The position numbers and the translations under genes were made by a program. This document shows, one piece after another, positions 5,953-23,454 of a DNA stretch of 32,000 nucleotides; position 1 is the stretch's first letter; the number at the start of each line of letters is the position of its first letter. Under the pieces are notes generated by a model. It worked only from the letters and a program-made list of their open reading frames with translations, was not told where the DNA came from and searched no databases. The DNA comes from Nitrosarchaeum sp. (lineage in GTDB: Archaea > Thermoproteota > Nitrososphaeria > Nitrososphaerales > Nitrosopumilaceae): NCBI GenBank assembly GCA_023265135.1, contig JAHFUM010000001.1, forward strand, positions 219,632-251,631, read 5' to 3'.

Positions 5953-7023
5953 TTACTTTAATTTATTTTTGTTAAAATAGGTTTTAGATAGATCCTCATA
6001 ATATTTTCCTAGTTTTTTGTACAATCGTTTTGGTTTTCGTGGACTTTCCATACTAAGTGCGTATAAGCATAAAACTGGAAACGCTATTGTAGCATCAGCA
6101 TAAACTACAATAACATCTTCGTGAGAATCTTTTACTTTCCCCCAGCTTTTACCTTCTTGAAGTGTAGCTCCTGACAAACCTCCAGTATCTGGTCTAGCAT
6201 CAGTGATCTGAATAATATAATTTTGTCCTCCGTGACCAAGACCCAAAATCTGATCTAATAATGGACCTGTTTGTTGCGCAGTGTTTTTTGGCACACCACC
6301 ACCTATCTCTACAATTCCCGCCTTTTTTGAATTGTATAAAATCGCTGCCTGTTCAATTATTTCTCTTACAAAATCCAACGAAAATGGCTTGTTGGCCAGT
6401 CTAAGCGGAGCTAGATCAAGGGCAAGTGAAGAATCTTTCAGTGTAGAAATATAGAGCGGAACATCATAATCATATGCAGAGACAACAAAACTTCTTTCCG
6501 GATGTTTTGAAAACTCTTTTGAATATTTACCCATCCAGTTTGAAAATTCTGCAGTTGTAAACGGCTTTTCAAATAAATTATTTTCAAACATTTTTTGTAT
6601 GATCATATCTTGTTTTTTCAGCGTTTCCTTACCTTTGATATAGACGTCTCTTATCCTGACAATGTCTTTTTGATAAAGAATCATGTCATCAACCTCAAAA
6701 TGTCCTTGTTTTACAGGTAGATTCCATGCAAAATGATCTTCATGATACAAATTAGATCCTGTAGAGATTATCCAATCAACAAAGCCTTTTTCAATAAGAG
6801 ATTTGAATAGACCTCCAAATCCAACTGGCGTCATAGCGCCAGCAATGGTAAGACAAATTGTTGCGTCATCTTCAATCATCTTGCGGAATAGTTTTGCAGC
6901 TTCCCCAAGTTGTCTTGCGTTGTAACCTGAGCTTGCATAAATTTCGACAAGATCATCAATTTTCATGTCTGGATTTACTTCTATGTGAGGAATATTTTTT
7001 CCATGAAAATTATGATAATCCAT
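5953..7023 (-). CDS. deoxyhypusine synthase-like paralogue
   Basis: 356 aa. It has GGGVPKNT in place of GGGxxKHH but retains SWGKV (EGKSWGKV). Same fold family as 4336..5271 but clearly divergent. Confidence 0.75.
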   Translation of the reverse strand: MDYHNFHGKNIPHIEVNPDMKIDDLVEIYASSGYNARQLGEAAKLFRKMIEDDATICLTIAGAMTPVGFGGLFKSLIEKGFVDWIISTGSNLYHEDHFAWNLPVKQGHFEVDDMILYQKDIVRIRDVYIKGKETLKKQDMIIQKMFENNLFEKPFTTAEFSNWMGKYSKEFSKHPERSFVVSAYDYDVPLYISTLKDSSLALDLAPLRLANKPFSLDFVREIIEQAAILYNSKKAGIVEIGGGVPKNTAQQTGPLLDQILGLGHGGQNYIIQITDARPDTGGLSGATLQEGKSWGKVKDSHEDVIVVYADATIAFPVLCLYALSMESPRKPKRLYKKLGKYYEDLSKTYFNKNKLK

Positions 7024-7157
7024 ATCAAATAATCAAATTCTACCAGATAATATATCTAATGTCAGGAAGTATTTTGATGAATTTGTTAGAGTACCTCATA
7101 TTGAATTATAGAAATATAGATTATAGTAATGGAGATCAGAACAACGAATATGAAACT

Positions 7158-7280
7158 CTAATCAAATTTTATTTCTTCTTGTTGTGTTGATGAATTACAA
7201 TGTGCACATCTTTCTGATGAAGTTTTAAAATATACCATGTGACATAATTTACAGGCCCTTAGTTCATTTAGTTTAACCAT
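7158..7280 (-). CDS. small zinc-ribbon protein (40 aa), not in ORF track
   Basis: Hand translation: MVKLNELRACKLCHMVYFKTSSERCAHCNSSTQQEEIKFD. ATG start, TAG stop, and CxxC-x11-CxxC spacing. Confidence 0.35.
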   Translation of the reverse strand: MVKLNELRACKLCHMVYFKTSSERCAHCNSSTQQEEIKFD

Positions 7281-7409
7281 AACAATCTAACTATTACAGT
7301 CATACAAAAATCTTATTTTGGTTATATGCCTTCCCATTATTAAGTCGAGATAACAATAGTCAAATTTTAACAATTTAGGACTATGTTTAGAAAAAACCTT
7401 GTATCTAAA

Positions 7410-7712
7410 TTATTTACTTTTTTCCAATTTACCAACAATCTCGTTAAATGACTCCATATTGGTCTCAATGAAATTTGATGTAAAGTAAACAACATTGTAT
7501 TTTTCTCCAATTTTTGTGATCATATTGTTTTTTTCAAGAACTTTAATGTGATGCTGAATAGCCTTGTAGTCAAGACCTAATTCCTTGGATAATTGATTTG
7601 TGTTAAGTGGTGTATTTTTCAATATTGATATAATTTTCAGACGGTTTAATCCTCCTCGCGAGCCTGCAAAAACAAACCAGAGTAATCTTTTTGAATCAGG
7701 ATCATTTGCCAA
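7410..7712 (-). CDS. ArsR-family winged-helix transcriptional regulator
   Basis: 100 aa with an HTH core NTNQLSKELGLDYKAIQHHIKVLEKNNMI followed by a wing. Divergent from the radical SAM gene. Confidence 0.7.
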   Translation of the reverse strand: MANDPDSKRLLWFVFAGSRGGLNRLKIISILKNTPLNTNQLSKELGLDYKAIQHHIKVLEKNNMITKIGEKYNVVYFTSNFIETNMESFNEIVGKLEKSK

Positions 7713-7810
7713 GTTATAAAATTCTTGTATGCCTTAATTAAAAGACATTACGGGATTTGCAAGATTAGAAAGTATAAAAAACACAATCAAACAATTACTG
7801 TGAATCAAAA

Positions 7811-8692
7811 ATGATGTTAAATTATGATGGTCCATTGTATAGACCGCCTTCAGAGGCAAGATCATTAATTTTTCAAGTTACGTTGGGTTGTTCCTTTAAC
7901 GAATGTTCTTTTTGTGATATGTATAGATCAAAACAATATTCAGAAAAACCTTGGGATGTAGTAAAATTAGAAATTGATTTAATGTCAAAACAATTACCTG
8001 ATACAAAAAAAATATTTTTGGCAGATGGTGATGCTCTAAATCTTGATTCAGAGTATATTGTAAAGATTGTAAAATATCTTTATGAAAAGTTTCCAAGCCT
8101 TGAAAGAATTTCTTGTTATGCAATGCCTATGAATATTTTAAAGAAAAGTGATGACGAATTAAAGAAAATGCATGATGCAGGATTAGATATGCTTTATTTG
8201 GGAATTGAGAGTGGCTCAGACATTGTTTTAAAAAAAATAACAAAAGGAGCAATTGCAAAAACAATCATCAGATCAATCAACAAAGCAAAAGATGCAGGAT
8301 ATATCATGTCTTGTATGATAATTTTAGGTTTGGGTGGAAGAACTTATTCTAAAGAACACATCAAGGGAACTGCTGAAGTGATTAATGCTAGTTCTCCTCA
8401 TTATGTAGGTGCATTAACTCTCTATTTAGAAAATGGAATCAAGCAAGAATTTTTAGAAAAGTTTGGAGAGCCATTTATCAAGATCAACGATGATGAATCG
8501 CTAGAAGAGTTGTATGATTTGATAAGCCAGATAGAAACCAAAGAAGAGATAATTTTCAGGGCAAATCATGGTTCAAATGCATATACAATAAAAGGTACAT
8601 TTCCACAAGACAAACAAGAAATGCTAGATAAAATAGAATGGATGAAACAGCATCCAGAAATTATGCGTCCTGAGGGGCTGCGAGGATTTTAA
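7811..8692 (+). CDS. radical SAM domain protein
   Basis: 293 aa. N-terminal Cys cluster GCSFNECSFCDMY (Cx4Cx2C), then FLADGDAL and LGIESGSD TIM-barrel motifs. Confidence 0.75.
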   Translation: MMLNYDGPLYRPPSEARSLIFQVTLGCSFNECSFCDMYRSKQYSEKPWDVVKLEIDLMSKQLPDTKKIFLADGDALNLDSEYIVKIVKYLYEKFPSLERISCYAMPMNILKKSDDELKKMHDAGLDMLYLGIESGSDIVLKKITKGAIAKTIIRSINKAKDAGYIMSCMIILGLGGRTYSKEHIKGTAEVINASSPHYVGALTLYLENGIKQEFLEKFGEPFIKINDDESLEELYDLISQIETKEEIIFRANHGSNAYTIKGTFPQDKQEMLDKIEWMKQHPEIMRPEGLRGF

Positions 8693-9083
8693 AATCTAGA
8701 TATATTTTCTAAAATTCCAATTTTGCATATAATTATGATGCCACAGACAAAGCTAAATGAGTCTGTCAATATCTCATTATTGTTTTGCATTATTTGACAA
8801 CCTAAATGAGATGAATTGTGGTTGGATGTTCAGCCCCCTAAAATACTCAAGTAATGATGGTTTTGTGAAACTTGATTTGATAAATTATTTTTTGAATTGT
8901 ATTAGAGTATGTGATCTAAGTACTGCAGCTATATGATCAGCTTCAAAAGTATGTTGTATTCCAAGAGTTAATCTAATTCCATCAATAATTACAGGGAGAA
9001 AATCTCCAATGTCACCAAAGATTTCTTCTTTCAATTTATCACATAGAGTTTCTCGATATTATCTTAAAAAGAATTTCCAAAGT

Positions 9084-9335
9084 TCAGAGCTGCTCAACTA
9101 TAGGCTTTAGATTATCCGGTAAATCAGGAATTTCAGTATGGCTTTCATTGTTTTGAAGTATTTCAGGTCCTATTCTTCGTACTCTTTGTGTTCCAATTAA
9201 TGTATCAATATTTCGTTGGATGTCTTTTTCTGACAAAACTGACTTTAATTTTTCAATTACAGTTTCCTCATTTTCATATTTTTTAATTGCATATTGCACA
9301 AGGATCATTTTTTCATTTGCAGAATAATCAGTCAT
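9084..9335 (-). CDS. hypothetical protein
   Basis: 83-aa ORF, same strand and 42 nt downstream of the thioredoxin-like gene. No recognisable motif. Confidence 0.45.
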   Translation of the reverse strand: MTDYSANEKMILVQYAIKKYENEETVIEKLKSVLSEKDIQRNIDTLIGTQRVRRIGPEILQNNESHTEIPDLPDNLKPIVEQL

Positions 9336-9377
9336 TTGAAAATATCATCATATCTAGAGTAAAAAAACATTCGTGAG

Positions 9378-9599
9378 TTATGAGAATCTCTTTTGAAGAT
9401 CTTCTTTTTTAGGAATACCAGTAAATTCTAATTTTCCATCAATTACCAATCCAGGGGCTGTAAATATGGGGTATTTTTCTAAATATTCTGGTTTTTCAGT
9501 TACATCAATCAAGTCATATTTTATGCCAAGTTGATCTAAGATCTTCTCAAGAACTAAACAATTTGAGCATCCAGGAGTGGTAAGAACTTGAACATTCAT
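9378..9599 (-). CDS. small thioredoxin-fold / glutaredoxin-like protein (CxxC)
   Basis: 73 aa. MNVQVLTTPGCSNCLVLEKIL is typical of single-domain thioredoxin-fold redox proteins. Confidence 0.75.
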   Translation of the reverse strand: MNVQVLTTPGCSNCLVLEKILDQLGIKYDLIDVTEKPEYLEKYPIFTAPGLVIDGKLEFTGIPKKEDLQKRFS

Positions 9600-9733
9600 G
9601 GCTCAGTAAACTGTGCAGGGTTATGCTCAAAAGCCCATCTGCAACTAGCACAACAGAAATAGTATTTCTTACCTTTATGATCTATAGAATCATGTTTTTC
9701 ATCAACTTCCATGCCACAGACTGGATCTTTCAT
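9596..9733 (-). CDS. YHS/TRASH-type metal-binding domain protein (45 aa), not in ORF track
   Basis: Hand translation: MKDPVCGMEVDEKHDSIDHKGKKYYFCCASCRWAFEHNPAQFTEP. This is the classic DPVCGMxV...YYFCxxxC...F..NP pattern. ATGA overlaps join it to both neighbours. Confidence 0.8.
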   Translation of the reverse strand: MKDPVCGMEVDEKHDSIDHKGKKYYFCCASCRWAFEHNPAQFTEP

Positions 9734-10728
9734 AGTACCATCTTTACCTTCTTTTGATTAATAAAATACCATATAATTGGAAATATAACTAGTCCTAAAA
9801 ATATTATAGGAATAATCTCGTTTGGAATTGTAAAATTATACGGATTTTGATGAACATGTTGTCCTATGTGAAATTCAACAGGCAATCCTATCAGAGATAT
9901 TAAATTATTCCAACCAAGATGAACTATTGTACCTTCATACCAAACATGACCGCCTGGAATACCATTAATTATTAAAAATGCGCCAATTATAACTAGCATC
10001 CATCCTGTTATTTTTTCAACCTTGATTCTGTTTGTAGTTAATCCTTTAGTTGCATTTACTCCAAGTACTGCAAGAAGCGAGAAAAGAATCAAAGGTATTG
10101 CTCTACCGACACCATGCACGAAACCTAGTGATGCGCCAATCTCTAAACTTCCAGTACTTGCAATGTAAATTAACAACCAGTAAAACATTGGATTTGGACA
10201 TCCAACTCCGGCATTACCAAGTAGAATTCCCATCAGATATGATTTTACATATTCGCCTCTATTTTGAATAAATTTAGGTGTCCTGGAATAAGTCGGCATT
10301 GTAAATGTAATCAATTTTAGTTGTGATAAACCAAAAACAAATCCTGCAATTCCAGCTATAAGAAACATTATTGTGGAGAACTGGTCTAGTGATGCTGTTT
10401 TTCCAATAGTTGCAACAGCCAAACCGTACAAAGTTATGGTTGTAGTTAGTCCAGCACCAAAAAGTAATGCCATAGTCAAACCCTTTTTGTAACCTTTTCC
10501 CATGCTTAATGGAATTATAATGAATACTAGTGGAAGCGTACACGGTAAAATAATCATTGAAAGACCAGCAACATAAGATATGACCAACCAGGATGTATAC
10601 GAAAATTCACTTCCAGACTTTATAGCTAGATTACTAGTTAATGAAAAAATAACCCCAAGAAAAATAAATGAAAACAAGACAAATGCTATAATGACGCCAG
10701 ATTTTTTGGCAAGAATAGAATTTGACAT
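9730..10728 (-). CDS. CcdA/DsbD-family membrane thiol-disulfide electron transporter-like protein
   Basis: 332-aa polytopic membrane protein. Two intramembrane Cys-Pro motifs (ILPCTLPLV and GVGCPNPMF), as in the DsbD transmembrane domain. Longer than a typical CcdA. Confidence 0.6.
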   Translation of the reverse strand: MSNSILAKKSGVIIAFVLFSFIFLGVIFSLTSNLAIKSGSEFSYTSWLVISYVAGLSMIILPCTLPLVFIIIPLSMGKGYKKGLTMALLFGAGLTTTITLYGLAVATIGKTASLDQFSTIMFLIAGIAGFVFGLSQLKLITFTMPTYSRTPKFIQNRGEYVKSYLMGILLGNAGVGCPNPMFYWLLIYIASTGSLEIGASLGFVHGVGRAIPLILFSLLAVLGVNATKGLTTNRIKVEKITGWMLVIIGAFLIINGIPGGHVWYEGTIVHLGWNNLISLIGLPVEFHIGQHVHQNPYNFTIPNEIIPIIFLGLVIFPIIWYFINQKKVKMVL

Positions 10729-10852
10729 ATCTTGAGTGGCTTTTTCAGATATTTAACTAGAATATTTTAGGCTGAAAAGAGAGTACAATGAATCAGAGTG
10801 ATAAATTTTATTTTTTATAATAAATTTTCATTTATTAAAATCCATCACATGT

Positions 10853-11014
10853 TTAGAAATTTCGTGAAAAATTATCTGATTTTATTTTTCCACATTTTAT
10901 ACATGAAATAGTTCCATTATGGGAATATTCATGAATGCATTCTTCAAATCCTAAGGACAAATCATTTTGGAATCTTTCTAAATGTTCATGAATTTCTCTT
11001 CCATTTTCTGACAT
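10853..11014 (-). CDS. possible small Cys/His-rich protein (53 aa), not in ORF track
   Basis: Hand translation: MSENGREIHEHLERFQNDLSLGFEECIHEYSHNGTISCIKCGKIKSDNFSRNF. ATG start. No family recognised. Confidence 0.25.
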   Translation of the reverse strand: MSENGREIHEHLERFQNDLSLGFEECIHEYSHNGTISCIKCGKIKSDNFSRNF

Positions 11015-11116
11015 GGTGAATTATGCTCAGATTTTATACAAAACATTAGTTTTACATCATTGCTAAAAAATTATCATCACAGCTAATTAGTTGTAATATA
11101 CAATTTTTTCAAACAC

Positions 11117-11410
11117 TTGATAATGTCACAAAAGAAACTTGCTACAGTTATTTTACCTGATTATGTTTATCATAAGATTAAATTTTTCCAAAAGGAATTA
11201 TCATATAAAGACAATAAAGAATGGAGTATATCAGATACAGTCAATTTATTGTTAAAGTTCTGTCTTTATGAAGAAAATGACTTGATTTATACTCAAGATT
11301 ATTCATTTTTTAAAGAATTCACATATGGAAAGGAATCATTTTTGCAAGATTTTACTTCAAATGTTTTGAGATCATGTATAGAATTTCAAACTATCAGATA
11401 TGATAAATAA
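11117..11410 (+). CDS. hypothetical protein, possible ribbon-helix-helix N-terminus
   Basis: 97-aa ORF; the likely ATG is at 11123. The N-terminus KKLATVILPDYVYHKIKFFQKEL has a strand-helix pattern. Confidence 0.45.
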   Translation: MIMSQKKLATVILPDYVYHKIKFFQKELSYKDNKEWSISDTVNLLLKFCLYEENDLIYTQDYSFFKEFTYGKESFLQDFTSNVLRSCIEFQTIRYDK

Positions 11411-11440
11411 TTATAATAATAACAATCAAGTGGGTTAGTT

Positions 11441-11698
11441 ATGCCACCTAGAAAAAAGATAGAAAAAGATCAAAAACTAAAAGGAGATCAAGCACGAATG
11501 GAATTTTTACAAAGAATAGTAGAAGATAAGCGAGCCGAAGTAGAAATCTATCGAGTACGTGTAGAACAATATTCAAAATGGCCTACAATCAAGGCACAGG
11601 CACAAAAGAATTTAGAAAATGCAGAAAAGGGACTAAAAAAAGCCAGCAGTGATCTCAAGATTCAACAAGAAAACATGGCCAGATTGGAAGAGAAGTAG
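11441..11698 (+). CDS. hypothetical coiled-coil protein
   Basis: 85 aa, highly charged, heptad-like sequence (RMEFLQRIVEDKRAEVEIYRVRVEQY...). Confidence 0.45.
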   Translation: MPPRKKIEKDQKLKGDQARMEFLQRIVEDKRAEVEIYRVRVEQYSKWPTIKAQAQKNLENAEKGLKKASSDLKIQQENMARLEEK

Positions 11699-11808
11699 AA
11701 ATTTTAACTTAATTTTTTATCTACTTAATACTTGTATGTGATTTTGTAAAATTAAGATTAATGTAAAAACAAATGAGTCATATTTATTTATAATGCAAAA
11801 AAAAAGAT

Positions 11809-12330
11809 TTATTCAAATGATTCAGTTCTATTTTTAAGTAATTCTCTTTCAGAGTTAAGTTTGGCGATATCATCCATAATTTTTTTAATTTGTTCATCAT
11901 CTGCAACAGATTTTTTTTCAACTCCTGAAGGTAATTCAATAAAATTACCAACCAACTCATTTTGTTTTCTAATTAGCTCTTCATTTTTTAAGTTTAGTTT
12001 TCCAGAAGCATTATAGGCTTTATTTATGTCATTGTTTTTAGAAGTCAGATCACCTACTTGCCCTGTCAAATGTTGAACAGGCTTTTGGCCAAAATAGAAA
12101 CCGATTATTGTTCCTAAAAAAGGTGCAAGCATGGCGATTAATTGATACGAAGAATCAAATTTATTCTTGTCATAAGTTTGCACAGATAGTACAATATACA
12201 CAAACACTGTAAATGATATAATGATAATCATCGCTATAATGAATTGAAAGAGCTCATCAACCTTAATGTTATATCTCAATTTTTTGTTTGACTTTTCCTC
12301 TTTATTTTTTAATGGTTCTTTATCTGTCAA
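11809..12330 (-). CDS. membrane protein with two TM helices and a C-terminal coiled coil
   Basis: 173 aa. TM segments FQFIIAMIIIISFTVFVYIVL and LIAMLAPFLGTIIGFYFG, followed by a charged helical tail. Confidence 0.55.
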   Translation of the reverse strand: MTDKEPLKNKEEKSNKKLRYNIKVDELFQFIIAMIIIISFTVFVYIVLSVQTYDKNKFDSSYQLIAMLAPFLGTIIGFYFGQKPVQHLTGQVGDLTSKNNDINKAYNASGKLNLKNEELIRKQNELVGNFIELPSGVEKKSVADDEQIKKIMDDIAKLNSERELLKNRTESFE

Positions 12331-12622
12331 CTAAATATAATGAATATGTGTTATTTATTAACAGATCGTTTTATAAATAGTACAAATGCAATTAGGATTC
12401 TAATTAATTGATTTTGCGTTATTTAATCCATACAACCTTAATAATAACATAATTTATTGTCCAAAAATTTTTCAAATAATTTGAGTAATCACATGTTGAG
12501 ACTCAGGTCAAAGATGATTAAATAGTAAATTATGCACTTCGTAAAAAAATGTTAGAATACAGTGAAATTATATTTAAATAATAAATGTTAGAAAAATTTT
12601 TTAATTTTAAAGACTCTGTTAA

Positions 12623-13435
12623 CTATAAACCCAATTCAGCGATTATATTAGTACGATTATTTGTAGTCAAGTAGTTTTTTAAATGAAGAATGATGTTTTG
12701 AATTCGAATTCCTTCATTATTTATGTAAACTGATTGCCCGCTTGCATTAGTTCCTACTGCCCCTTTGCCACGATGAATAGCGATCAAATTCCAAGAATCA
12801 TCAAATACAGGTGAACCTGAAGATGAGGTTTCGGTATCGGATGTGTAACGTATTACTTTTTCAAAGATATTCGTTATAATACTATCACGTAATGCAACTT
12901 TTTTTGGCACACCTAAAGGATGTTGTATAATATTGCATCGATCATTTAATGCGATGTTTGGTATTTTTAATTTAATAAATGCATGTTTATTCCCAGGATT
13001 TCCATTATTTGGAGCTAATCTTATAATTGTATAATCCAGAACATCATTTGTATAGAAAAAACGGGTTGCTAGATCAATGGATGCGTGAAATGTATCAACA
13101 GGTAATTGTGAGCCATGAATATCTAATTGATAATTAAATTGAAATTCGGCGGCTTCTGCATCTTGTATCGTAGGTAAAACATGATTATTTGTCATAAAAA
13201 GTGAGGGTGATACTAAGAATCCTGAAGCAAATTTACCGCTAGGATGTGTTATCACCTTACCTACAGCTTTCTGTATATTTGCACCTGTTTCTAAGAAATT
13301 AACATCTAATAAATCATTATTACCGATCATCGATTTTGATTCAACATGTGGATCATTCTCAGGTGTAGAGATTATTGAAGGAGATTCAAATTCGCTTGTT
13401 AGTTTAATGATAGGCTTTTCATTAATCACGATCAT
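12623..13435 (-). CDS. trypsin-like (clan PA, S1-type) serine peptidase, no signal peptide
   Basis: 270 aa. Triad contexts are GFLVSPSLFMTNNHV (His), VLDYTIIRL (Asp) and TETSSSGSPVF (Ser). The N-terminal NFLETGANIQKAVGKV motif is common in cytoplasmic trypsin-like effector domains. Confidence 0.75.
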   Translation of the reverse strand: MIVINEKPIIKLTSEFESPSIISTPENDPHVESKSMIGNNDLLDVNFLETGANIQKAVGKVITHPSGKFASGFLVSPSLFMTNNHVLPTIQDAEAAEFQFNYQLDIHGSQLPVDTFHASIDLATRFFYTNDVLDYTIIRLAPNNGNPGNKHAFIKLKIPNIALNDRCNIIQHPLGVPKKVALRDSIITNIFEKVIRYTSDTETSSSGSPVFDDSWNLIAIHRGKGAVGTNASGQSVYINNEGIRIQNIILHLKNYLTTNNRTNIIAELGL

Positions 13436-13702
13436 TAGCTGAGTTTATTCTATATAAGATTTATTGGAATAGGGTGAAATTATATTTTAATAAATTCACA
13501 GTAAAATAGTTTCATCACAATGTGGGGGAAAATTATGACGTTTTCATATTCTAATTTATGTTTGGATACCTATGTAATTTGTAATTCTAATTTTATTATG
13601 TAAACATATGTCATTTTCAGGTTCTTTTGTTACAATTAGTGAAATGTTTTATTTTAATACTCAAAAAAATGATAATACAGTGATTACTGAAATTAACAAA
13701 TA

Positions 13703-14029
13703 TTATTTACTTTGTATTCTCTTGATTTCATGTCCTTCTGAATCAAAAATATAAATATGATAATTTTTGATTTTCTCCCCATCATCGGCTTGTATTGATT
13801 TTGCCACTGATATCTGATATTCTATTTTTGGTTTTTCAGGTAATAAGTGAACTGGTTTAATGAATTTTTTTTCAGGTAAGTGAAATTTTCTGTTACAACT
13901 TGCAATCTTTGCCATTGTTTTCGGTTCCGTTAACTGGCTTTTTATTTCATTAGTTGTAAGAGTAACTTCACTGTCTTTATTTTTAGCTTGTATTTCTTTA
14001 AAAATTTTTTTTATAATTTCATCAGACAT
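13703..14029 (-). CDS. hypothetical protein (108 aa), starts 10 nt downstream of the C25-like peptidase gene
   Basis: ORF only, Lys-rich, no TM segment and no motif recognised. Confidence 0.5.
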   Translation of the reverse strand: MSDEIIKKIFKEIQAKNKDSEVTLTTNEIKSQLTEPKTMAKIASCNRKFHLPEKKFIKPVHLLPEKPKIEYQISVAKSIQADDGEKIKNYHIYIFDSEGHEIKRIQSK

Positions 14030-14039
14030 GAATATTCAC

Positions 14040-15149
14040 TTATAGAGTGGGATCTCCATATAAAACAAATTCTATTAATGTTTTTTCAGCATATTTATCA
14101 TTATTTTGCAAAGATTCTTGATAGTATTCGATTTTAGTCTCTATGAAGGCATCTCCACATTTCTTACCACAAGCTATTTTTCTTAAAAACTTATCAGCGA
14201 TCAAATCTGAATAATACAATATTGGTGATGTTCCATTATTTCCATATGCAGTTGCTGTGGAACCAATCACACACTTTGCGCCCATTTTTAGATACATTAA
14301 AGAAATTGCATTGTCAGGGTTTTTTTGGATAATGTATGCACCATAACATGCCTGCGAAATTACGATTGCATTTGGTACTTTAGTAGTATTAATAACATCA
14401 GTGCTTACAGCTGCGGATAAATTTCTTCCATCCGCACCATACCAAAATTTAGATGTTTGATTACCATGTAGATTAAAATAATGGTAAAGACAATCTTTAA
14501 TATTATTAGAAGATACTGTGGTGGATGGATTTATCAGTAAACTATGAGATTGACTAATATTTTCGTAGATTCGTTGTGATGGAAGTTGCCAAGATGATGC
14601 TACACAGCCCATTGATTTAACTTTGTGGTTGGTATGAGAACTATGTGCATTGATTGCTGTTTCTAGTTCACTAATTAAGAAGTTAGAATCATTAGATTTA
14701 CCATCAGGAATTCTACCAACAATCCACTCCGGAAGTAAAAAATCGTTGTCTGATGATGCATAAGGTGCATCAGAATAAACTAGATGATCAGAATTATCCA
14801 CATGTGATTGTTGAATTGTATGAAATGGAATTATTTGGTGTCCACCAACAATTAGCAAGTATTTCAGGTTAGTATTATTTTTATAAAATTGTTGTATTAA
14901 GTCAAGAATTGCATCAGAACTATCATTTTGTACTTTCGTCAAATTAATAGGATTAGTACTTTGAGGGTTATCCACAAAAACTAAACTTGTATTGATGCCT
15001 TCATTTTTTATTGTATCTCTCAGCTTTTCCAAGGAATTTTTTATTTTATTAAAATATGGATCAGAATATTTTTGTCTAAGATTTCCTTCATGTGAGATAA
15101 TCAATAACATAGAAATACAATTAAAATTGAAGTTTATTAATATTTTCAT
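14040..15149 (-). CDS. clan CD cysteine peptidase, gingipain (C25)-like, no signal peptide
   Basis: KYLLIVGGHQIIPF...YSDAPYASSDNDFLLPEWIVGRIP matches the C25 N-terminal pattern. His-Gly (YFNLHGN) and QAC (VISQACYG) form a dyad 40 residues apart. GAKCVIGSTATAYG follows. An alternative start is the ATG at 15110. Confidence 0.65.
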   Translation of the reverse strand: MKILINFNFNCISMLLIISHEGNLRQKYSDPYFNKIKNSLEKLRDTIKNEGINTSLVFVDNPQSTNPINLTKVQNDSSDAILDLIQQFYKNNTNLKYLLIVGGHQIIPFHTIQQSHVDNSDHLVYSDAPYASSDNDFLLPEWIVGRIPDGKSNDSNFLISELETAINAHSSHTNHKVKSMGCVASSWQLPSQRIYENISQSHSLLINPSTTVSSNNIKDCLYHYFNLHGNQTSKFWYGADGRNLSAAVSTDVINTTKVPNAIVISQACYGAYIIQKNPDNAISLMYLKMGAKCVIGSTATAYGNNGTSPILYYSDLIADKFLRKIACGKKCGDAFIETKIEYYQESLQNNDKYAEKTLIEFVLYGDPTL

Positions 15150-15214
15150 ATTATACTCACCTATAGATAGTTATGATTTAGAACTAAGGTTAAATCTGAA
15201 TAACCAAGGTAGTT

Positions 15215-15751
15215 TTAATGTCTAGGTACAGCTGATACGACTGGTTTGTAAATATCTGTTACTTCTTTAATGGTCTCTTGAACATTGTGTACGACTCCAG
15301 ACTTTTTGGAAGATACAAAAGTTACTGTTAATTCATTTATCAGATCTTTAATGGATGTAAACATTTCCTGAGTGGAAATAATTACATTGTGAATATCCTT
15401 ACCATTTACACCGTTTTCATCATTGCCAAATGAATCAATTTTTTTCTTGGCAGAGTCTATTAGAGATGTAGTTTTGTTGATTATACCTGTTTCCTTGAGC
15501 TCCTGTGTAATGTTTTGCATCTTTGTTGCCGTATCATTGATGTTTTCAGAAATTATACGGAAATTTTCAATGTTCTTTACCATTTCTGGCGTTTGGAGTC
15601 CTTGAATTATTTCATTAATCTTGGATACAGTCTCTTTAACATTGGTCAGTGATTCTAGAACTCCTGGTGTGCCAATCTGGCGCATTATTGCTGCTGCATC
15701 AAAAGCAGTTGCCCTGATTTCACTTAATTTGCTTGATTTTTTTTCTTCCAT
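15215..15751 (-). CDS. alpha-helical repeat protein, paralogue A
   Basis: 178 aa. Shares PEM-x3-I...ND...T-x-ELK-x-x-G-x-I motifs with 16093..16620. Confidence 0.6.
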   Translation of the reverse strand: MEEKKSSKLSEIRATAFDAAAIMRQIGTPGVLESLTNVKETVSKINEIIQGLQTPEMVKNIENFRIISENINDTATKMQNITQELKETGIINKTTSLIDSAKKKIDSFGNDENGVNGKDIHNVIISTQEMFTSIKDLINELTVTFVSSKKSGVVHNVQETIKEVTDIYKPVVSAVPRH

Positions 15752-15781
15752 AGTGTTTCAACTTTTCAAATTCAACGATAT

Positions 15782-16096
15782 CTATGCTATTGTATCTGGA
15801 ACGTCTTCCATATAATGAACCTTGTCTGTCAGACGCATTTGTATTACAAATATCAAGCCGCCAATTACAAACATCGAGTTTAGCACGGCAAAGCCAATGT
15901 TGTTTGTAAGAAAGTCATTTACAGCAAGTAAGAGATTAAGTCCTGTTAAGCAAACAGAAATGATAGGAAAATACTTGCCTGTTTTAATTATGACATCAAG
16001 CAAGTGGACAAACAAACTGATCTTTGCAGAATCAGAAATTGGGGTTACAAAATGTACCAATTTCTGTCCTGATTTTGTATTCACTATATGTTTCAT
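15782..16096 (-). CDS. small membrane protein (2-3 TM)
   Basis: 104 aa. Its start codon overlaps the upstream stop (ATGA at 16093-16096). Hydrophobic segments FPIISVCLTGLNLLLAV and AVLNSMFVIGGLIFVI. Confidence 0.55.
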   Translation of the reverse strand: MKHIVNTKSGQKLVHFVTPISDSAKISLFVHLLDVIIKTGKYFPIISVCLTGLNLLLAVNDFLTNNIGFAVLNSMFVIGGLIFVIQMRLTDKVHYMEDVPDTIA

Positions 16097-16620
16097 CGGA
16101 CACCAACTTTGGTTTTTAGATCTTTTACGACCATGCCAGTCACATGATTTGTCTCCTTTTTGACAAGGTCTACTCCTTTGTGTATTGCCTTTGTTGTGTG
16201 TGGAGATACTCTCCCAGCGTCAGTTGCAATATCTTTTACAGTTGATGCAGATTCTTCTGCAATTTTCAAGGTGTTCTCTATAGCACCTGCAGTGTCAACT
16301 ATTGCACCTTTTCTTTTCAGCTCTTTTGTTGTTTCGTTAATATCGTTTACAGTATCACGAACAGCAAACGAAGCTTCACGTATTGCATCAGCCATTTCTG
16401 GTATGGCACCACTTTCGCGAAGAGTTTTCATTGTTTCTCTCATCTTAAATGAATACTCTCTGATGTTCTTTGAGACATTTTGGATGGCTTCCACAGTCTC
16501 GGTTGCAGTCCATTTGTGGACCAGATCCCCTTGCGAAGATCCATTTTGATGATTATTGTAGTCTTTCATGCTGTAATGGCACATGATTTTACTAATAACG
16601 CTCGCTAACAATTTATTCAT
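16093..16620 (-). CDS. alpha-helical repeat protein, paralogue B
   Basis: The ORF track starts at TTG 16641; the first ATG is at 16620 (MNKLL...). Internal repeats: ESGAIPEMADAIRE / RKGAIVDTAGAIEN. Paralogous to 15215..15751. Confidence 0.6.
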   Translation of the reverse strand: MNKLLASVISKIMCHYSMKDYNNHQNGSSQGDLVHKWTATETVEAIQNVSKNIREYSFKMRETMKTLRESGAIPEMADAIREASFAVRDTVNDINETTKELKRKGAIVDTAGAIENTLKIAEESASTVKDIATDAGRVSPHTTKAIHKGVDLVKKETNHVTGMVVKDLKTKVGVR

Positions 16621-16804
16621 ATCATTGATCCATTTATCCAAGGCAGAAATATGGTAAATAGATAGATTCCTCTACTTAATCGGGCAATGTTTTGGGCGTA
16701 ATTATGCGTGAAATTAAATTTCAAGTTCCCAATATAGTTTAAAAAATCACTTTTTATAAGAAATTTTATTAGCTACAATGACATATAATATTCAGAGAAA
16801 CTAA

Positions 16805-17065
16805 ATGACTGAAAATTATGTACGTGTAGGTGGAAGAGGAACATCTAGTAGAATTGCTAAAAAAGAAGATCAGAATTGGACTGGTTCAGCATTTAAAAAT
16901 CTGCAAGAGAAACGAAAAGAAGAATCAAAAAACAGTTACATTTCTGTAGGAAGAGGTACTAGTAAAATCAAGTTTGGAGATATCAATACAGGTTCTCAAC
17001 GACCAACAGGGAAAGGAATGTGGGTAAGTACTGGTCGAGGAACTGGTAAGCGTTTGATAAAATGA
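16805..17065 (+). CDS. small basic protein with three GRGT repeats
   Basis: 86 aa. The three repeats are YVRVGGRGTSSRI, YISVGRGTSKIKF and WVSTGRGTGKRLI. Confidence 0.5.
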   Translation: MTENYVRVGGRGTSSRIAKKEDQNWTGSAFKNLQEKRKEESKNSYISVGRGTSKIKFGDINTGSQRPTGKGMWVSTGRGTGKRLIK

Positions 17066-17166
17066 AATGCTTTCATGATACATAAAACTTGATCAAGATT
17101 TGTTTATTATACTATTTAATTAAAAATAAAATTATATTTTAAGTAAAATAGAAAAAATTTAGAAGT

Positions 17167-17514
17167 TTATTTAAAAGAACGAACTTTGCGAATTACTTTG
17201 TTGTGATCAAATGCAGCTGTAGTAGTAACATACAAGATATGATTCTTACCAGCAGGCATTACTATTCTCTTAACTGTATCATACTCAGCTACAACATATT
17301 TGCATGATCCAAGTGTTCGAAGTAGTTTTTTTCTTTGTTTCCAATCATGAGCAGCAGCTTTTAGTGATGCCAAGCTTTGATTTTTGGACACAAGAATTTT
17401 TACTTTCTTTGAACGTGCAGAGAAAATCAATTTTCCTTGAAGGTCACAAACACTAACTACTCTTACAGAAGGACTTAACTTCAAAAGTTTTTCTGCGGCA
17501 GATTGTATTTCCAT
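17167..17514 (-). CDS. hypothetical protein, possibly Roadblock/LC7-like
   Basis: 115 aa. Pattern LLKLSPSVRVVSVCDLQGKLIF...ILYVTT loosely resembles the Roadblock/LC7 fold. Weak, by eye only. Confidence 0.4.
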   Translation of the reverse strand: MEIQSAAEKLLKLSPSVRVVSVCDLQGKLIFSARSKKVKILVSKNQSLASLKAAAHDWKQRKKLLRTLGSCKYVVAEYDTVKRIVMPAGKNHILYVTTTAAFDHNKVIRKVRSFK

Positions 17515-17568
17515 GTTATTGGTTTGTGTTATAGTTGATAAAATTTTCTATTTCATTTACTAAAATAA

Positions 17569-17647
17569 ACTAACTGATAGTAAGAGAACGGCAGGGCTTG
17601 AACTAACAGATAGTATGGGCCCACAGGTTCTCTCACTATCAGTTAGT
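17569..17647. repeat. imperfect inverted repeat (21-nt arms, 1 mismatch, 37-nt spacer) enclosing the distal att copy
   Basis: Left arm 17569-17589 is actaactgatagtaagagaac. Right arm 17627-17647 is gttctctcactatcagttagt. Confidence 0.8.
17590..17627. repeat. att direct repeat, distal copy (displaced 3' end of tRNA-Val plus trailer)
   Basis: ggcagggCttgaactaacagatagtatgggcccacagg matches 24727-24764 at 37 of 38 positions. Confidence 0.9.
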
Positions 17648-17769
17648 AAGAGCCCAAGAAATTTTGTGAATAAAAGTTGACATAAAATGCAGAAAGCTTA
17701 TCGGAGTAGCTACAAACTCCTTTCCTATTTTTTATTTTTCGATAAAACTGTAATTTATGAAAATTAAAC

Positions 17770-18885
17770 ATGAACAATTATAGAAAAACAAATTTATCGA
17801 CAACCAGTAAAAATGGTATCCCCCGTTTTGTTCGGGAAGACATACTATGTTGGCGTAAAGCTTTTTGTCAAGTAAACGAATATTTTATTGTGAGATTATT
17901 CATATTTCCAATAATTGGGATTTTGTTAGTTTCAGTTGGAGGGTATATTACAATTCCAGTTAGTGCAGAAGAAAATCCATGTAGAGATAGTGAATCAGTC
18001 GAGCTAAACTACAAAATCGATAAAGGTATGGTAAAATCAATCTGTCGTGATAGGGAGACAGAGAGTTTAATTGTTTCAATCAATGCTACTGGTAACGGTA
18101 CAATATTTTTGGACATTCCAAGAAAAATTATGAATCAAATAAATTCAAATTGTGAAGATGTTCCATTTTTTGTACTTGTTAATGATGAAGAAATATTTCA
18201 AGATAGAAAAAACAATTTTGGAATAGATCCTTATGTAGAAACAAAGTCTATCTATTCTCGTACATTGCAAATTCCATTTAAAACAGAATCTTATAAAATC
18301 GAGATTATGAATTATTCATTCATTCCTGAATATTTGCAAGACGTAAAAACATGTCAAGAGAAAATAAATTCACTTCCACCCAAACAACAAATAATGAAAG
18401 GAGTATTGCCTGAAGAGATAGTTTGTAAAGAAGGATTACAATTAATCTTCAATTCAAAGAATAACTCTCCTGCATGTGTAAAACCACAATCAGCTAAACA
18501 ACTTGTTGAGCGCGGATGGGGAATAATTGTAACACAAATACCAGACAAAGATAGTCCATCAAAATCAATGAAATTATCTAACTCTGATTTTATGATATAC
18601 TATGACATAACAGGAGGCAATATTCTTGAAGTTAAAGAGGACAAACAAGAAAGAACAATAACAATATCATTAGACACCACAAGTCAAGGGATGCTAACAA
18701 TAACTCTGCAAAAAGCCTTGATAGACTCAACTTTTGGGAACAAGTTTGAGCCTACCTTATTTGTCTTAGTAGATAAAAATGAAGTTAACTTTGAGGAAAC
18801 AGCTACATCTGCAGATAGAACACTAACAATACAATTCCCAGCAGGAGCTGAGACTATTCGAATCATTGGACCTATTTATCCATAA
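17770..18885 (+). CDS. secreted/anchored modular protein (two beta-rich modules plus a Cys-bracketed RGW module)
   Basis: 371-aa ORF. An in-frame GTG at 17890 would give a clean signal peptide, MRLFIFPIIGILLVSVGGYITIPVSAEE. Modules are shared with 19506..22109. Confidence 0.65.
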   Translation: MNNYRKTNLSTTSKNGIPRFVREDILCWRKAFCQVNEYFIVRLFIFPIIGILLVSVGGYITIPVSAEENPCRDSESVELNYKIDKGMVKSICRDRETESLIVSINATGNGTIFLDIPRKIMNQINSNCEDVPFFVLVNDEEIFQDRKNNFGIDPYVETKSIYSRTLQIPFKTESYKIEIMNYSFIPEYLQDVKTCQEKINSLPPKQQIMKGVLPEEIVCKEGLQLIFNSKNNSPACVKPQSAKQLVERGWGIIVTQIPDKDSPSKSMKLSNSDFMIYYDITGGNILEVKEDKQERTITISLDTTSQGMLTITLQKALIDSTFGNKFEPTLFVLVDKNEVNFEETATSADRTLTIQFPAGAETIRIIGPIYP

Positions 18886-19066
18886 TTATTTCAGGACTTG
18901 TCGCTTATTTGGATAATTACATTGAGGACCTTAACACGAGGATGGTCAAGTGATTGAATATTTTGATTTTAACACTTTTTTTCTGAGGTCACAATAAGAT
19001 TACATGCTGTGTTGTCGTAAAGGTTATGGTTAAGTAAGAAGATTATTTTTCACTCTGCAGATAAAA

Positions 19067-19315
19067 ATGAAAACCAGATTATTAATAATTATTGGAATCT
19101 TAATCATAGTTAGCATACTCTTTTTCTGTTTTAGTATTTTTGAATATACAAAACAACATCAAGTATTTGTAGATTATTTTACAAAACCTATCCATAAAGC
19201 AGGTTCCAGTATGCCATTGCCTGATACGAACACTTTCGTTCCTTATCTAATAATTGGAATCATAACGAGTGCTTGTGGAATTTTTACAATAATTCAAAGT
19301 AGAAAATCAAAATGA
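19067..19315 (+). CDS. small membrane protein (2 TM)
   Basis: 82 aa. TM segments LLIIIGILIIVSILFFCFSIF and YLIIGIITSACGIFTII. Confidence 0.5.
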   Translation: MKTRLLIIIGILIIVSILFFCFSIFEYTKQHQVFVDYFTKPIHKAGSSMPLPDTNTFVPYLIIGIITSACGIFTIIQSRKSK

Positions 19316-19505
19316 CTCTCAAAGGACAAAGAAACCACTACAACGTAAAATTTCTCAAAGGATATGGTCACTCCATTTCAGTGAAAGATTCAAAAATTAT
19401 TCTCAGACTGCCCGCCTTGTGAGTAAAAACGTGCGTCTGACTAAAGTAATGACGTAAGTTGATTTGTTGGAAAATCATTATAACAAAAGATGCAATCATA
19501 ATTAT

Positions 19506-22109
19506 ATGCAGAAATTTTTTGCTTTGGTGATACTTTCCATTTTAATTTCATCAACATTTCTGTTGTCTAGTGTATATGGACAAACTGTTCAACCAAATTC
19601 AAATACTGTCATAAAAGATGGGTTAAAACTTACAGTATACACTGACAAAAAATTCTATACCAAGGAAGATGCTATTAATATAAAATGGACTGCTCAAAAC
19701 ATTGGGTCAGAAAATATTACTTATGACAATTTCATAGTAAAAATAATTGGAAATGCTACTGAATATGACTCTTCTAGATTAAAACCATCTGAGATACTGC
19801 TTATATCACCAGATGATACTCGTGTAAAGAAATTTGACAGCGATGTATTTTATGGAAAAATATTATCTTTGATAAAACTTGGGGAAACTAGATCTTATGG
19901 TATCATTATGATTGTCTCTGATCAAAATAAAATTACTGTTGAAGACATTTTGAAAACCAAACACCATGCCACAAATGTATTTGCGGGGGAGAGACTTTCA
20001 TTTGTAACTGCGCAAGTACCTCTTCAAGAAATTCCAAAACTTGCAGATTATGACGTTATTAGTCTAATCGGAGACGGTGAACAAAAGATTATTTTTGACT
20101 ATGTAACAATAAACACTTTACAGGTAGGTCAAACTCTGAATGGAGGCTTGTCATTGAGTCAGCATCTTTATCCCAGATATTACGATAAACAACAGGTAAT
20201 CCCATCTGGGCAATATACAGTACAACTATCATTTGCAGGGAATCAATCTTCAGTACCTATATCCATAGATGAATCACCATCACCAAAAATACAACCATCT
20301 ATAGTGAATCAATCTTCAGTACCTATATCCATAGATGAATCACCATCACCAAAAATACAACCATCTATAGTGAATCAATCTTCAGTACCTAACTCTCTTA
20401 CAATAGATCCAGACATCATATTTCCAGAGATGCAAAGAAATGAGGCACATGAATTACATGGACAAGTTTTTTTTGCAGGTAATTTGGCAAAGGATGTCTT
20501 TGTAACTATGTCGATAGAAAATCCTGATGGTTCATTTTTAAATAAACACTCAGAGACACAAACCGACAAGGACGGCAATTATAATTTTTCAATTTTTATT
20601 CCTCAGGACAGTGCTTTAGGAACTTATACAGTATCTCTTAATGCTACGATATCAGGGTATGCATCAACTAGCATGCAATACTATTTTTGGATCACCAATT
20701 CGCCAACCCTTGATGACTATGCTTGGAAAATCACGAAAGTATTTCGTGACAAGAATGAATTTCAGGTTCCATATAGAATTACCAGTGGAAATGTACATGA
20801 CATGGAATCAAAAAACGGCTCATTTTTTTTATATTTGGATAGTTATTCAGAAGGACTTCTTGAAATTGCAATCCCAAGAAATCTGATAGAACCTGATCTA
20901 AAGTCAATCTATGATGAATTTACACCTTTAGTTGATGGATATTACCAACATTCCAAAGAAACAGATTCTGAATGTTTTCGAACATTTACTATTCAACTAT
21001 TTCAAAACGCTAAAACTGTAGAAATAATTACAGCTCCTGATGCATTAGGTCCTAAATACCAAACAAACATTCCTGAGAAATGTAATAATTCAGCAACATA
21101 CGCTAAGTTTTCAGAAAAAAAACCATCTATAAATAAAATCTCTAATGGAGTCAGTCCCAATATTTCAGAAATTAGCAAACTTCCTTTGAAGTTTTATGTG
21201 TTACACGAAAATTTGTTTTATGAAAATAATGATTATGCTGAACAAACTTTTAGAATTCCATACAAACTTTATAATGCAAATTTAGAATTTATCGGATATA
21301 ATTCTGGTACAATCACAATAGGTATAGACAATAAAGATACTGGCACAATGCAAATTGCGATCCCTAACAATATCCTTGAATCAGAAAAACCTGAACAGCT
21401 AAATGATTTTTCCCTTTCCATCGATGGACACACTTCAGATTTTCATAGTTTAAAAACGCCCTGTTATCGAGAATTTACTTTTGAACTTCCTAAGAATTCA
21501 AATGAGATTTTACTCACACATAACATTCAATCAGGAAGTAGATTGCCATACGTTAACCCTTTGAATTTTCCAGCTAACTGTATAACGGGTGATACCACCC
21601 CAAGTAGTCAAATTTTATCAGGAAAATTGCCTAGTGAAATAGGATGTTATGACAAAGAAATGATACCGTTTAAGAGATTATCTGAGGACGAAATTGTTTG
21701 TGTAACACAAAAAACTGCTGAAGTACTTGTGAAAAGAAATTGGGGAAATTATCCAATTGATCTAAAAAACGGTCAAACATGGGTTGAACTATACCCTGTA
21801 CTCTGTCATAAAGATTTATGTGCAATTAGATCAATTTGGGAAGAATCATATCTTTCAGGTGAATTACAACCAACATTATTTGAAGGAACATCGGGTTATG
21901 ATATTGAAACTACATCCAAATTGATAATTGAAAGTTATAAAAAACAGGGAATTAAAATCTACGATGTAAAATTTGAACAAAACAATCCTGTCAATTGTGA
22001 TACAAAAGGCTGTTTAGATCCATATACTCTCAAACTTTTGATTAATGACAGTGATCTAAACAAAATGAACGGATATAGTTTTGAAATTTTTGAAAAATAT
22101 AGGCCGTAG
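19506..22109 (+). CDS. large secreted modular protein with an internal perfect tandem repeat
   Basis: The ORF track starts at TTG 19464. The ATG at 19506 gives signal peptide MQKFFALVILSILISSTFLLSSVYGQ. Two modules are homologous to those in 17770..18885, plus a CysRGW-type module (CYDKEMIPFKRLSEDEIVCVTQKTAEVLVKRNWG). Confidence 0.7.
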   Translation: MQKFFALVILSILISSTFLLSSVYGQTVQPNSNTVIKDGLKLTVYTDKKFYTKEDAINIKWTAQNIGSENITYDNFIVKIIGNATEYDSSRLKPSEILLISPDDTRVKKFDSDVFYGKILSLIKLGETRSYGIIMIVSDQNKITVEDILKTKHHATNVFAGERLSFVTAQVPLQEIPKLADYDVISLIGDGEQKIIFDYVTINTLQVGQTLNGGLSLSQHLYPRYYDKQQVIPSGQYTVQLSFAGNQSSVPISIDESPSPKIQPSIVNQSSVPISIDESPSPKIQPSIVNQSSVPNSLTIDPDIIFPEMQRNEAHELHGQVFFAGNLAKDVFVTMSIENPDGSFLNKHSETQTDKDGNYNFSIFIPQDSALGTYTVSLNATISGYASTSMQYYFWITNSPTLDDYAWKITKVFRDKNEFQVPYRITSGNVHDMESKNGSFFLYLDSYSEGLLEIAIPRNLIEPDLKSIYDEFTPLVDGYYQHSKETDSECFRTFTIQLFQNAKTVEIITAPDALGPKYQTNIPEKCNNSATYAKFSEKKPSINKISNGVSPNISEISKLPLKFYVLHENLFYENNDYAEQTFRIPYKLYNANLEFIGYNSGTITIGIDNKDTGTMQIAIPNNILESEKPEQLNDFSLSIDGHTSDFHSLKTPCYREFTFELPKNSNEILLTHNIQSGSRLPYVNPLNFPANCITGDTTPSSQILSGKLPSEIGCYDKEMIPFKRLSEDEIVCVTQKTAEVLVKRNWGNYPIDLKNGQTWVELYPVLCHKDLCAIRSIWEESYLSGELQPTLFEGTSGYDIETTSKLIIESYKKQGIKIYDVKFEQNNPVNCDTKGCLDPYTLKLLINDSDLNKMNGYSFEIFEKYRP
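20241..20391 (+). repeat. 66-bp perfect tandem repeat, 2.3 copies, in frame
   Basis: Unit aatcaatcttcagtacctatatccatagatgaatcaccatcaccaaaaatacaaccatctatagtg at 20241-20306 and 20307-20372, plus 19 nt of a third copy. It encodes NQSSVPISIDESPSPKIQPSIV. Confidence 0.95.
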
Positions 22110-22334
22110 TGCAATAAATGATTTGAGAAACACAAGTATTTGCTTGAGTGTAGCTATGTATGTTTTTGATAATAATTCTTGCTTTTATTGTAGCGTATAA
22201 GGGAACTAGTTATACAAAAAGAAAATCTAAACTTTATTCCTAAATCCTTAAGTTTTATACATCAGGCTTGAGAATGAAAATAAAAAAAATCTAATTTTAT
22301 TACATTCTAAGACAAAGCACTTCACCATTTGAAA

Positions 22335-23177: not shown

Positions 23178-23226
23178 TTAATGTGTAGACAAATTTCGAT
23201 ATTAATTTCTGTTATTATTGTATTAT

Positions 23227-23451: not shown

Positions 23452-23454
23452 GTC

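Follow-up and report, generated by a model that had tools for sequence, protein, structure and literature searches.

Enzymes of the gingipain type are known for acting as secreted virulence factors. The gingipains RgpB and Kgp of Porphyromonas gingivalis belong to peptidase family C25 and are regulated in trans by a separate domain. Specifically, the prodomain of RgpB inserts Arg126 into the S1 pocket, and legumain, a C13 enzyme of the same clan (CD), is inhibited by its own C-terminal domain, the LSAM prodomain (PMC4357240). In Tannerella forsythia, small cognate inhibitors named potempins are encoded beside peptidase genes (PMC9890683). Cytoplasmic caspase-fold proteases that act on a small partner or are controlled by one include separase with securin, and TPR-CHAT (Csx29) with Csx30 of type III-E CRISPR systems. 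Here, we describe a 32,000-nucleotide stretch of Nitrosarchaeum sp. DNA (contig JAHFUM010000001.1, positions 219,632 to 251,631), referred to as the window, in which the gene of a C25-like cysteine peptidase (14040-15149, minus strand) is followed by that of a 108-aa protein (13703-14029, minus strand). The thermosome of this genome groups at 90% identity or more with proteins carrying the Nitrosarchaeum name. Both lie in a run of seven genes (11809-16641) that also encodes two helical proteins, A and B, a 104-aa membrane protein, a trypsin-like serine peptidase and a 173-aa membrane protein. An earlier reading of this DNA, hereafter the original prediction, took all seven genes for one conflict or cell-death system. 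We consider it likely that the cluster is instead a juxtaposition of three independent modules, that the C25-like peptidase and the 108-aa protein constitute a self-contained, two-subunit cytoplasmic protease, and that the slot containing them was acquired horizontally.

The C25-like identity of the peptidase was borne out by the match of its 369-aa open reading frame (ORF) to Pfam PF01364 (E = 3.4e-17, 63.2 bits versus a 23-bit cut-off), which covers profile positions 9-372 of 374. The predicted HG...QAC dyad was located in NLHG (H228-G229) and SQAC (A267-C268), and was invariant in 13 homologs and likewise in 21. Acidic residues invariant in the family are D127, D149 and D315. An AlphaFold2 model of the protein (mean predicted local distance difference test, pLDDT, of 85; predicted template modeling score, pTM, of 0.89) was compared with the PDB using Foldseek. 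The best matches were RgpB (1cvr; E = 1.9e-15, TM-score 0.64) and Kgp (E = 2e-12), followed by a second tier of separase, TPR-CHAT and SAVED-CHAT (E ~ 1e-6). The catalytic domain starts at the first β-strand and ends at 'FVLYGDP'. The homologs share a common 'MxLIIS' start, and the aligned stand-alone homologs are leaderless as well. As originally predicted, neither the C25-like nor the trypsin-like protein has a signal-peptide-like N-terminus. Nor does the window C25 protein carry the other additions found in gingipains, namely an N-terminal prodomain, an immunoglobulin superfamily (IgSF) domain or the C-terminal domain of the type IX secretion system (T9SS). The lack of a leader together with the invariant dyad rules out a secreted or inactive protein. 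From its sequence and predicted structure, the enzyme looks like an active, cytoplasmic, gingipain-fold peptidase.

The family is found mainly in Chloroflexota, with scattered archaeal occurrence. A word-indexed search with the C25 protein returned 23 relatives. Scanning genomes with the family alignment gave 96 loci, mostly from Chloroflexota and otherwise from Desulfobacterales, WOR-3, Altiarchaeum and further archaea, and an exhaustive HMMER search returned 1,009 representatives at E ≤ 1e-30. No Nitrosopumilales species representative was among the 96 loci of the genome scan (best identity, 37%), and a structure search of BFVD revealed no viral relatives.

The 108-aa protein, originally described as an orphan, is tied to the C25 gene more strongly than first claimed. 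In one relative (L005; related loci are given by such numbers below), the C25 ortholog is followed by a 108-aa ortholog of 36% identity (E = 3e-16). A word-indexed search with the 108-aa protein retrieved only the protein itself, and homology was built using profiles of C25-neighboring ORFs. In Desulfobacterales, Anaerolineae, WOR-3 and archaea, the ORFs immediately after stand-alone C25 genes were matched by a profile of five archaeal downstream ORFs, with E values of 1e-8 to 1e-35. After iteration, the profile covered, at full length and ending at the terminus, the last ~90 residues of long (550-1,160 aa) C25 homologs. Similarly, a hidden Markov model based on these tails only recovered the free ORFs, and the first hit beyond them among 7,706 short ORFs had an E value of 0.26. 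We refer to this domain of ~95 residues, for which Pfam has no model, as the small domain (SD). Judged by these comparisons, the 108-aa protein is a divergent, free-standing member. Indeed, a profile that omitted the window and L005 proteins matched the window protein over its full length (E = 1.4e-3) and placed it and the L005 protein directly after the true members and ahead of the next hit (E = 1.1). The corresponding hhalign comparison yielded a probability of 91.7% (E = 8e-7).

Fusion of the SD to the peptidase is the common state: the two share a polypeptide in 120 of the 150 top representatives, and the SD reaches the last residue in 109. In 114 representatives, the last two residues are Ser-Arg (86), Ser-Lys (23) or Ser-His (5). 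The window 108-aa protein ends in Ser-Lys (...DSEGHEIKRIQSK), and a fused homolog ends in ...DEGGHILKVAVSK. In the model of a fused homolog, the SD comprises a helix (490-503) and four strands (511-516, 558-568, 572-582 and 588-594), with a disordered insert and block-mean pLDDT values of ~73-89 in the structured parts. Searching the PDB with this model again retrieved gingipains, with no match for the SD. MAFFT scattered the 108-aa protein across the peptidase domain when it was aligned with the fused proteins, and it was removed before structure prediction. No account of a cytoplasmic C25-like family paired with an SD emerged from our literature search, an absence that is no proof of novelty; as far as we found, the pairing of C25 and SD, fused or split, is undescribed. 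The family would represent gingipain-type enzymes that act inside the cell and travel with a Pfam-less domain, which is fused to them or encoded right after them.

The C25 and 108-aa genes are the one functional unit in the cluster with solid support, and the remaining genes are distributed separately from them. L005 and about 17 other loci contain C25 and a small ORF with no trypsin gene (among them L006, L007, L009, L015-L018, L024, L041, L044, L057, L069, L075, L087, L088 and L094), in lineages that include Altiarchaeum, Desulfobacterales, WOR-3 and Chloroflexia. The closest C25 homolog, that of L005 (50% identity), has kept the 108-aa ORF and lacks the trypsin gene. Conversely, the closest trypsin homolog (L011, 47% identity) has kept a homolog of the 173-aa protein and lacks the C25 gene. 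To survey the other end of the cluster, a metagenome scan with B was followed by tblastn with all window proteins. Among the relatives found (L095-L113), 16 contigs were long enough to judge. All 16, from Nitrosopumilaceae, encode B, the 104-aa protein and A in the same order at 57-83% identity, with A and B as helical proteins of ~175 aa flanking the 104-aa protein and its two transmembrane segments. In none of them did tblastn detect the C25, 108-aa, trypsin-like or 173-aa genes. The neighborhood is therefore conserved as far as this triad (15215-16641, minus strand) is concerned, and the protease pairs are patchy, each occurring alone elsewhere. As the protease genes occur independently in relatives and among unrelated neighbors, the claim of a single seven-gene system did not hold.

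The boundaries of the variable part were defined by blastn against L095. The two contigs share aspartokinase, GT28 and tRNA-Val genes (window 27566-24750), homology returns over the triad (16636-15228), breaks, and returns again at 11373. At the corresponding position, L095 contains an unrelated 2.2-kb segment, whose 521-aa ORF runs in the opposite direction; in L107, Rad50/Mre11-like genes come after the triad. Based on the breakpoints, window positions 11374-15227 replace the unrelated L095 segment and delimit a variable slot of 3.85 kb. The C25, 108-aa, trypsin-like and 173-aa genes occupy this slot, in agreement with the accessory status originally proposed. Under the three-module interpretation, the lineage-conserved triad would be the first module and would lie outside the protease units. 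The C25-like peptidase and its 108-aa subunit would be the second, and the trypsin-like peptidase with the 173-aa protein, a looser pair, the third. The second and third would have been acquired horizontally into the slot. The apparent two-protease 'death system' would then be a chance neighborhood, and a false lead is removed.

By analogy with the RgpB prodomain and the C-terminal domain of legumain, we propose that the 108-aa protein acts as a regulatory subunit. The C25-like enzyme would be an active gingipain-fold cysteine endopeptidase working in the cytoplasm. The C-terminal domain of one helix and four β-strands, obligatory in the family, would here be detached as the 108-aa protein. 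This subunit would bind the peptidase noncovalently, most likely holding it latent or steering it to substrates, and its C-terminal Ser-Lys may mimic a product and thereby fill the S1 pocket. The analyses show the modularity, the domain homology, the fusion, the fold, the catalytic residues and the lack of leader peptides; we infer physical binding, inhibition or targeting, the P1 specificity and the biological role. If the SD is indeed a latch or adaptor, it would represent a new way to regulate clan CD proteases and provide a handle on their cytoplasmic substrates, among which might be the division machinery in Chloroflexota.

Each of the described systems matches the pair in part. Like the gingipains, the window peptidase has the Pfam match, the fold (E ~ 1e-15, TM-score ~0.6), the His-Gly and Ala-Cys dyad, placed where consecutive strands end, and a separate domain that would regulate it in trans, as the prodomain does through Arg126. 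In contrast, it is only 13-15% identical to them, has no sequence-level match in the PDB, appears cytoplasmic and belongs to a family of archaea and Chloroflexota whose accessory domain is C-terminal or separately encoded and bears no relation to that prodomain. Legumain self-inhibits through a domain in the position that the SD has when fused, but it is a lysosomal or secreted, pH-activated enzyme of another family. The SD, moreover, is predicted to fold differently and can be encoded by a gene of its own. Separase and TPR-CHAT have helical or TPR N-terminal scaffolds, as do the long Chloroflexota C25 forms. However, their structural match is weaker (E ~ 1e-6, TM-score ~0.4), the window C25 protein has no TPR region, and no CRISPR or cohesin context was found. 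The potempins, of 98-132 residues, offer a likeness in gene layout, as they too adjoin the genes of their cognate peptidases. Unlike the 108-aa protein, whose gene is downstream, they are outer-membrane lipoproteins that are encoded upstream and inhibit secreted peptidases.

The genomic context of related C25 genes is varied. Stand-alone pairs adjoin housekeeping genes such as those for SepRS, UbiE and GT2, GidA, ROK-family proteins and, in Altiarchaeum, glycosyltransferase clusters; in L018, the pair stands beside Cdc48, LonB and an M42 peptidase. In L005, an Endonuclease_NS gene (7010-7897) is divergently adjacent to the orthologous pair. The Altiarchaeum contig L009 encodes a truncated second C25-like copy of 133 aa and a HEPN/nucleotidyltransferase pair just upstream of C25 and SD (190-591 and 1578-2197). 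In Chloroflexota, where the long C25 forms have N-terminal TPR repeats, the locus is conserved and includes genes for a giant TPR protein, a protein with two transmembrane segments, a sigma-54 response regulator and ftsZ (examples are L039, L008, L068 and L058, the last at 1922-3106). The giant TPR protein (~1,700 aa) is encoded directly upstream of C25 in 41 loci (e.g., L039 3779-8938), and a NACHT-TPR protein of 2,225 aa takes its position in L008 (1223-7900). The two-transmembrane protein has ~111 aa (L068 3135-3467), and an unannotated protein of ~428 aa is encoded downstream. The giant TPR and 111-aa proteins were considered as counterparts of A, B and the 104-aa protein and were rejected: they have no BLAST similarity and a different Pfam content. 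Overall, the context of the C25 pairs does not look like a defense island and suggests a regulated protease of the cytoplasm that is complete in itself.

A second setting of the SD is next to ftsZ. Of the free SD genes, 15 do not adjoin C25, and every one of them is located at the 3' end of ftsZ or overlaps it, in bacterial loci where a fused TPR-C25-SD protein is encoded as well (L025-L033, L047, L050, L054, L061, L072 and L092; also L010 3594-4945). In L061, for example, ftsZ spans 12937-14085 and the SD gene 14075-14308. These SDs have 75-125 aa, end in Ser-Lys/Arg and occur in 14 of the 16 ftsZ-containing loci. The linkage suggests a connection between the protease family and cell division. 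A broader proposal would hold that C25 and SD represent a widespread, undescribed cytoplasmic clan CD family that comprises 1,000 or more clusters at 50% identity, mainly from Chloroflexota and with scattered transfers to archaea, that the dedicated SD controls the protease by plugging the S1 pocket with its terminal Ser-Arg/Lys, which mimics a product, and that free SDs translationally coupled to ftsZ tie the protease to division in filamentous Chloroflexota. We advance it tentatively and, as a whole, rate it unlikely.

The same loci bear on a different role for the SD, namely that it is no inhibitor and instead an adaptor, recognition module or substrate through which the protease reaches a target, for example FtsZ, in regulated housekeeping proteolysis. 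The uniform position of the free SD genes at ftsZ speaks for it, and where one locus encodes the SD twice, in separate proteins, binding of like to like or to a shared partner is suggested. The TPR scaffolds of the long forms and the Cdc48, LonB and M42 neighbors of the L018 pair fit as well. However, no ftsZ is near the window pair or the other stand-alone pairs examined. Nitrosopumilales divide using Cdv proteins, not FtsZ. A role in targeting competes seriously with inhibition; the full reading, with the SD as no inhibitor and the pair in housekeeping, we rate as quite improbable. The slot might also be a small defense island with two separate abortive-infection modules, in which each protease is curbed by or activates its small partner. 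The 173-aa protein with its two transmembrane segments and coiled coil would be an effector at the membrane, and the 108-aa protein would inhibit in the manner of a securin or an antitoxin. We judge this combined interpretation, details included, to be unlikely. The accessory nature, patchy distribution and variable location of the protease genes would suit such an island, protease-activated effectors are an established defense logic (PMC12799240), and relatives of the trypsin-like protein include the trypsin-NucA conflict systems discussed below. Some archaeal C25 pairs are near HEPN/nucleotidyltransferase, Fic or Endonuclease_NS genes, the C25 fold also resembles separase and TPR-CHAT, and the trypsin-like and 173-aa proteins have weak PADLOC and PHROG matches. 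Against this, the window contains no sensor, nuclease or known effector, most stand-alone C25 pairs occur amid housekeeping genes, the C25 structure has no viral relatives, and the fused form in Chloroflexota has a stable neighborhood of ftsZ and the sigma-54 regulator, unlike the turnover of defense islands.

Least probable is that all seven genes are one conflict or cell-death system in which the two proteases process the small proteins into effectors, in the manner of gasdermin systems. It would account for the shared strand, the short gaps between five of the genes, the missing T-run between A and C25, the two active-looking cytoplasmic proteases and the identical arrangement in four samples of the same population. 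It does not account for the independent inheritance of the components, the occurrence of each protease pair alone or the retention of the triad at 57-83% identity in relatives with neither protease, and no sensor NTPase was found. The gasdermin-like layout was not recovered either: the five non-protease proteins gave no gasdermin match in Pfam, NCBIfam or PADLOC. PADLOC-DB v2 revealed no defense system for the cluster and no match for C25, the 108-aa protein, A or B. The matches below 1e-3 were at the domain level only, of the trypsin domain to RT-Protease_XI (5e-5) and of the 173-aa coiled coil to DndD (1.4e-4). PHROGs yielded only weak matches to families of unknown function. We found no evidence of a defense or cell-death role for the cluster.

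The three-module interpretation and the proposed regulatory mechanism have points that weigh against them. The family profile did not match any PDB sequence even at E = 10, and Asp163 of the RgpB S1 pocket could not be mapped. The assignment of the divergent 108-aa protein to the SD rests partly on position and motif, its leave-out E value being ~1e-3. The free SDs of one subclade (Altiarchaeum, L015, L017 and L018) end in Ser/Thr-Gly-Asn, which weakens a universal S1-plug model. The free SDs after ftsZ in Chloroflexota fit adaptor or targeting roles at least as well as inhibition. Finally, the 65-nt gap between A and C25 has no T-run, making co-transcription with the triad possible in this genome, and the pairing of the trypsin-like and 173-aa genes was found in one genome (L011) besides the window.

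The trypsin-like peptidase (270 aa; 12623-13435, minus strand) was confirmed as such by a match to PF13365, Trypsin_2 (S1-type; E = 9.4e-18, 65.8 bits versus a 27.6 cut-off). Its triad, His85/Asp134/Ser208, is 100% conserved in 120 sequences, and 5 of 119 homologs have a hydrophobic N-terminus. Judged from sequence features, both proteases look active and cytoplasmic. The 173-aa protein (11809-12330, minus strand) has two predicted transmembrane helices (30-48 and 63-81) and a C-terminal coiled-coil region, and the two segments claimed for the 104-aa protein were likewise found by hydropathy. In L011, a 42% identical homolog of the 173-aa protein (E = 3e-33) is encoded ~270 nt downstream of the trypsin homolog. 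The 173-aa gene is directly preceded by a non-coding block (12331-12369, minus strand; CGATCTGTTAATAAATA...TATTCATTA) that has a TATA-like core and is near-identical in L011 (~6146-6185), despite the 42-47% identity of the flanking proteins. The block is probably the gene's own promoter or operator, which suggests independent but linked regulation of the trypsin-like and 173-aa genes. A function as a protease with a membrane partner is possible, based on these two genomes.

Homologs of the trypsin-like protein number more than 600 across bacteria and archaea, many being annotated as 'endonuclease G'. Distant ones occur in unrelated contexts, including trypsin-Endonuclease_NS loci and an HtrA-like cluster. 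In L013 (6001-9056) and L014 (6001-9054), a 41% identical trypsin is near a second trypsin gene, a trypsin-Endonuclease_NS fusion and an S8 peptidase. This architecture is that of 'System 3', trypsin with NucA, described by Kaur et al. 2020 (PMC7159879). In the window, by contrast, the neighbor is a two-transmembrane coiled-coil protein with a promoter-like element of its own, and no nuclease was found among the ORFs of 9000-19500 or the other Pfam-scanned ORFs.

All seven minus-strand ORFs were recovered at the coordinates originally given. B (16093-16641), which has a weak ApoLp-III-like profile match under threshold (E = 2e-5), the one informative homology seen for the triad, is coupled to the 104-aa gene (15782-16096) by the predicted ATGA overlap at 16093-16096. 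The gap to A (15215-15751) is 30 nt, and the 108-aa ORF begins 10 nt downstream of C25, as had been stated. The tight spacing thus holds from B to the 108-aa gene and not for the last two genes. The trypsin-like gene has its own upstream gap, as noted before, of 267 nt, and the 173-aa gene one of 292 nt. Because these AT-rich gaps contain T-runs, the cluster is likely to consist of three transcription units. A T7 run follows the 108-aa gene. The true start of C25 is probably Met14 at 15110 (356 aa), as this is where all homologs begin and the model falls below a pLDDT of 50 over residues 1-9. Similarly, B probably starts at Met25 (16569), where its orthologs start. The proposed paralogy of A and B received weak support (BLASTP E = 3e-4; hhalign probability 79%, E = 1.6e-5) and nothing stronger. 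Rfam revealed nothing credible in 11300-17200, and the NCBIfam scan of the cluster proteins added nothing to the Pfam results. The slot also contains an 85-aa coiled-coil ORF on the plus strand (11441-11698).

The only tRNA gene of the window, for tRNA-Val (24752-24828, minus strand), is 8.1 kb from B. Contrary to the original prediction, the cluster therefore does not abut it; in L095, B does adjoin tRNA-Val, with just 16 bp between them. A 41-nt direct repeat, 95% identical, occurs at 17587-17627 and 24724-24764 and overlaps the 3' end of the tRNA gene. The 7.1-kb segment that it brackets encodes ORFs of 371, 82, 881 (MG2-like), 100, 135 and 427 aa and has the appearance of an integrated, att-flanked element. 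No integrase was recognized in it, and the tRNA-adjoining 427-aa ORF has no Pfam or PHROG match. The cluster falls outside the att-like repeats (17587-24764) and is not part of the tRNA-integrated element. For Nitrosopumilaceae, the slot would document a horizontal gain of protease modules beside a tRNA-linked hot spot.

Three further features were observed. The gene of a DsbD-like membrane protein (332 aa, 9730-10728) is represented in L095 by two short fragments only (8587-8851) and appears to be partly deleted there. Two deoxyhypusine synthase paralogs (PF01916; 4336-5271 and 5953-7023, both on the minus strand) lie less than 2 kb apart, with a 187-aa ORF between them. Finally, the gene of the secreted, MG2-like 881-aa protein (19464-22109) contains tandem 66-nt repeats at 20225-20391, in 2-3 copies that are 83-91% identical and encode a recurring PSIVNQSSVPISIDESPSPKIQ segment.

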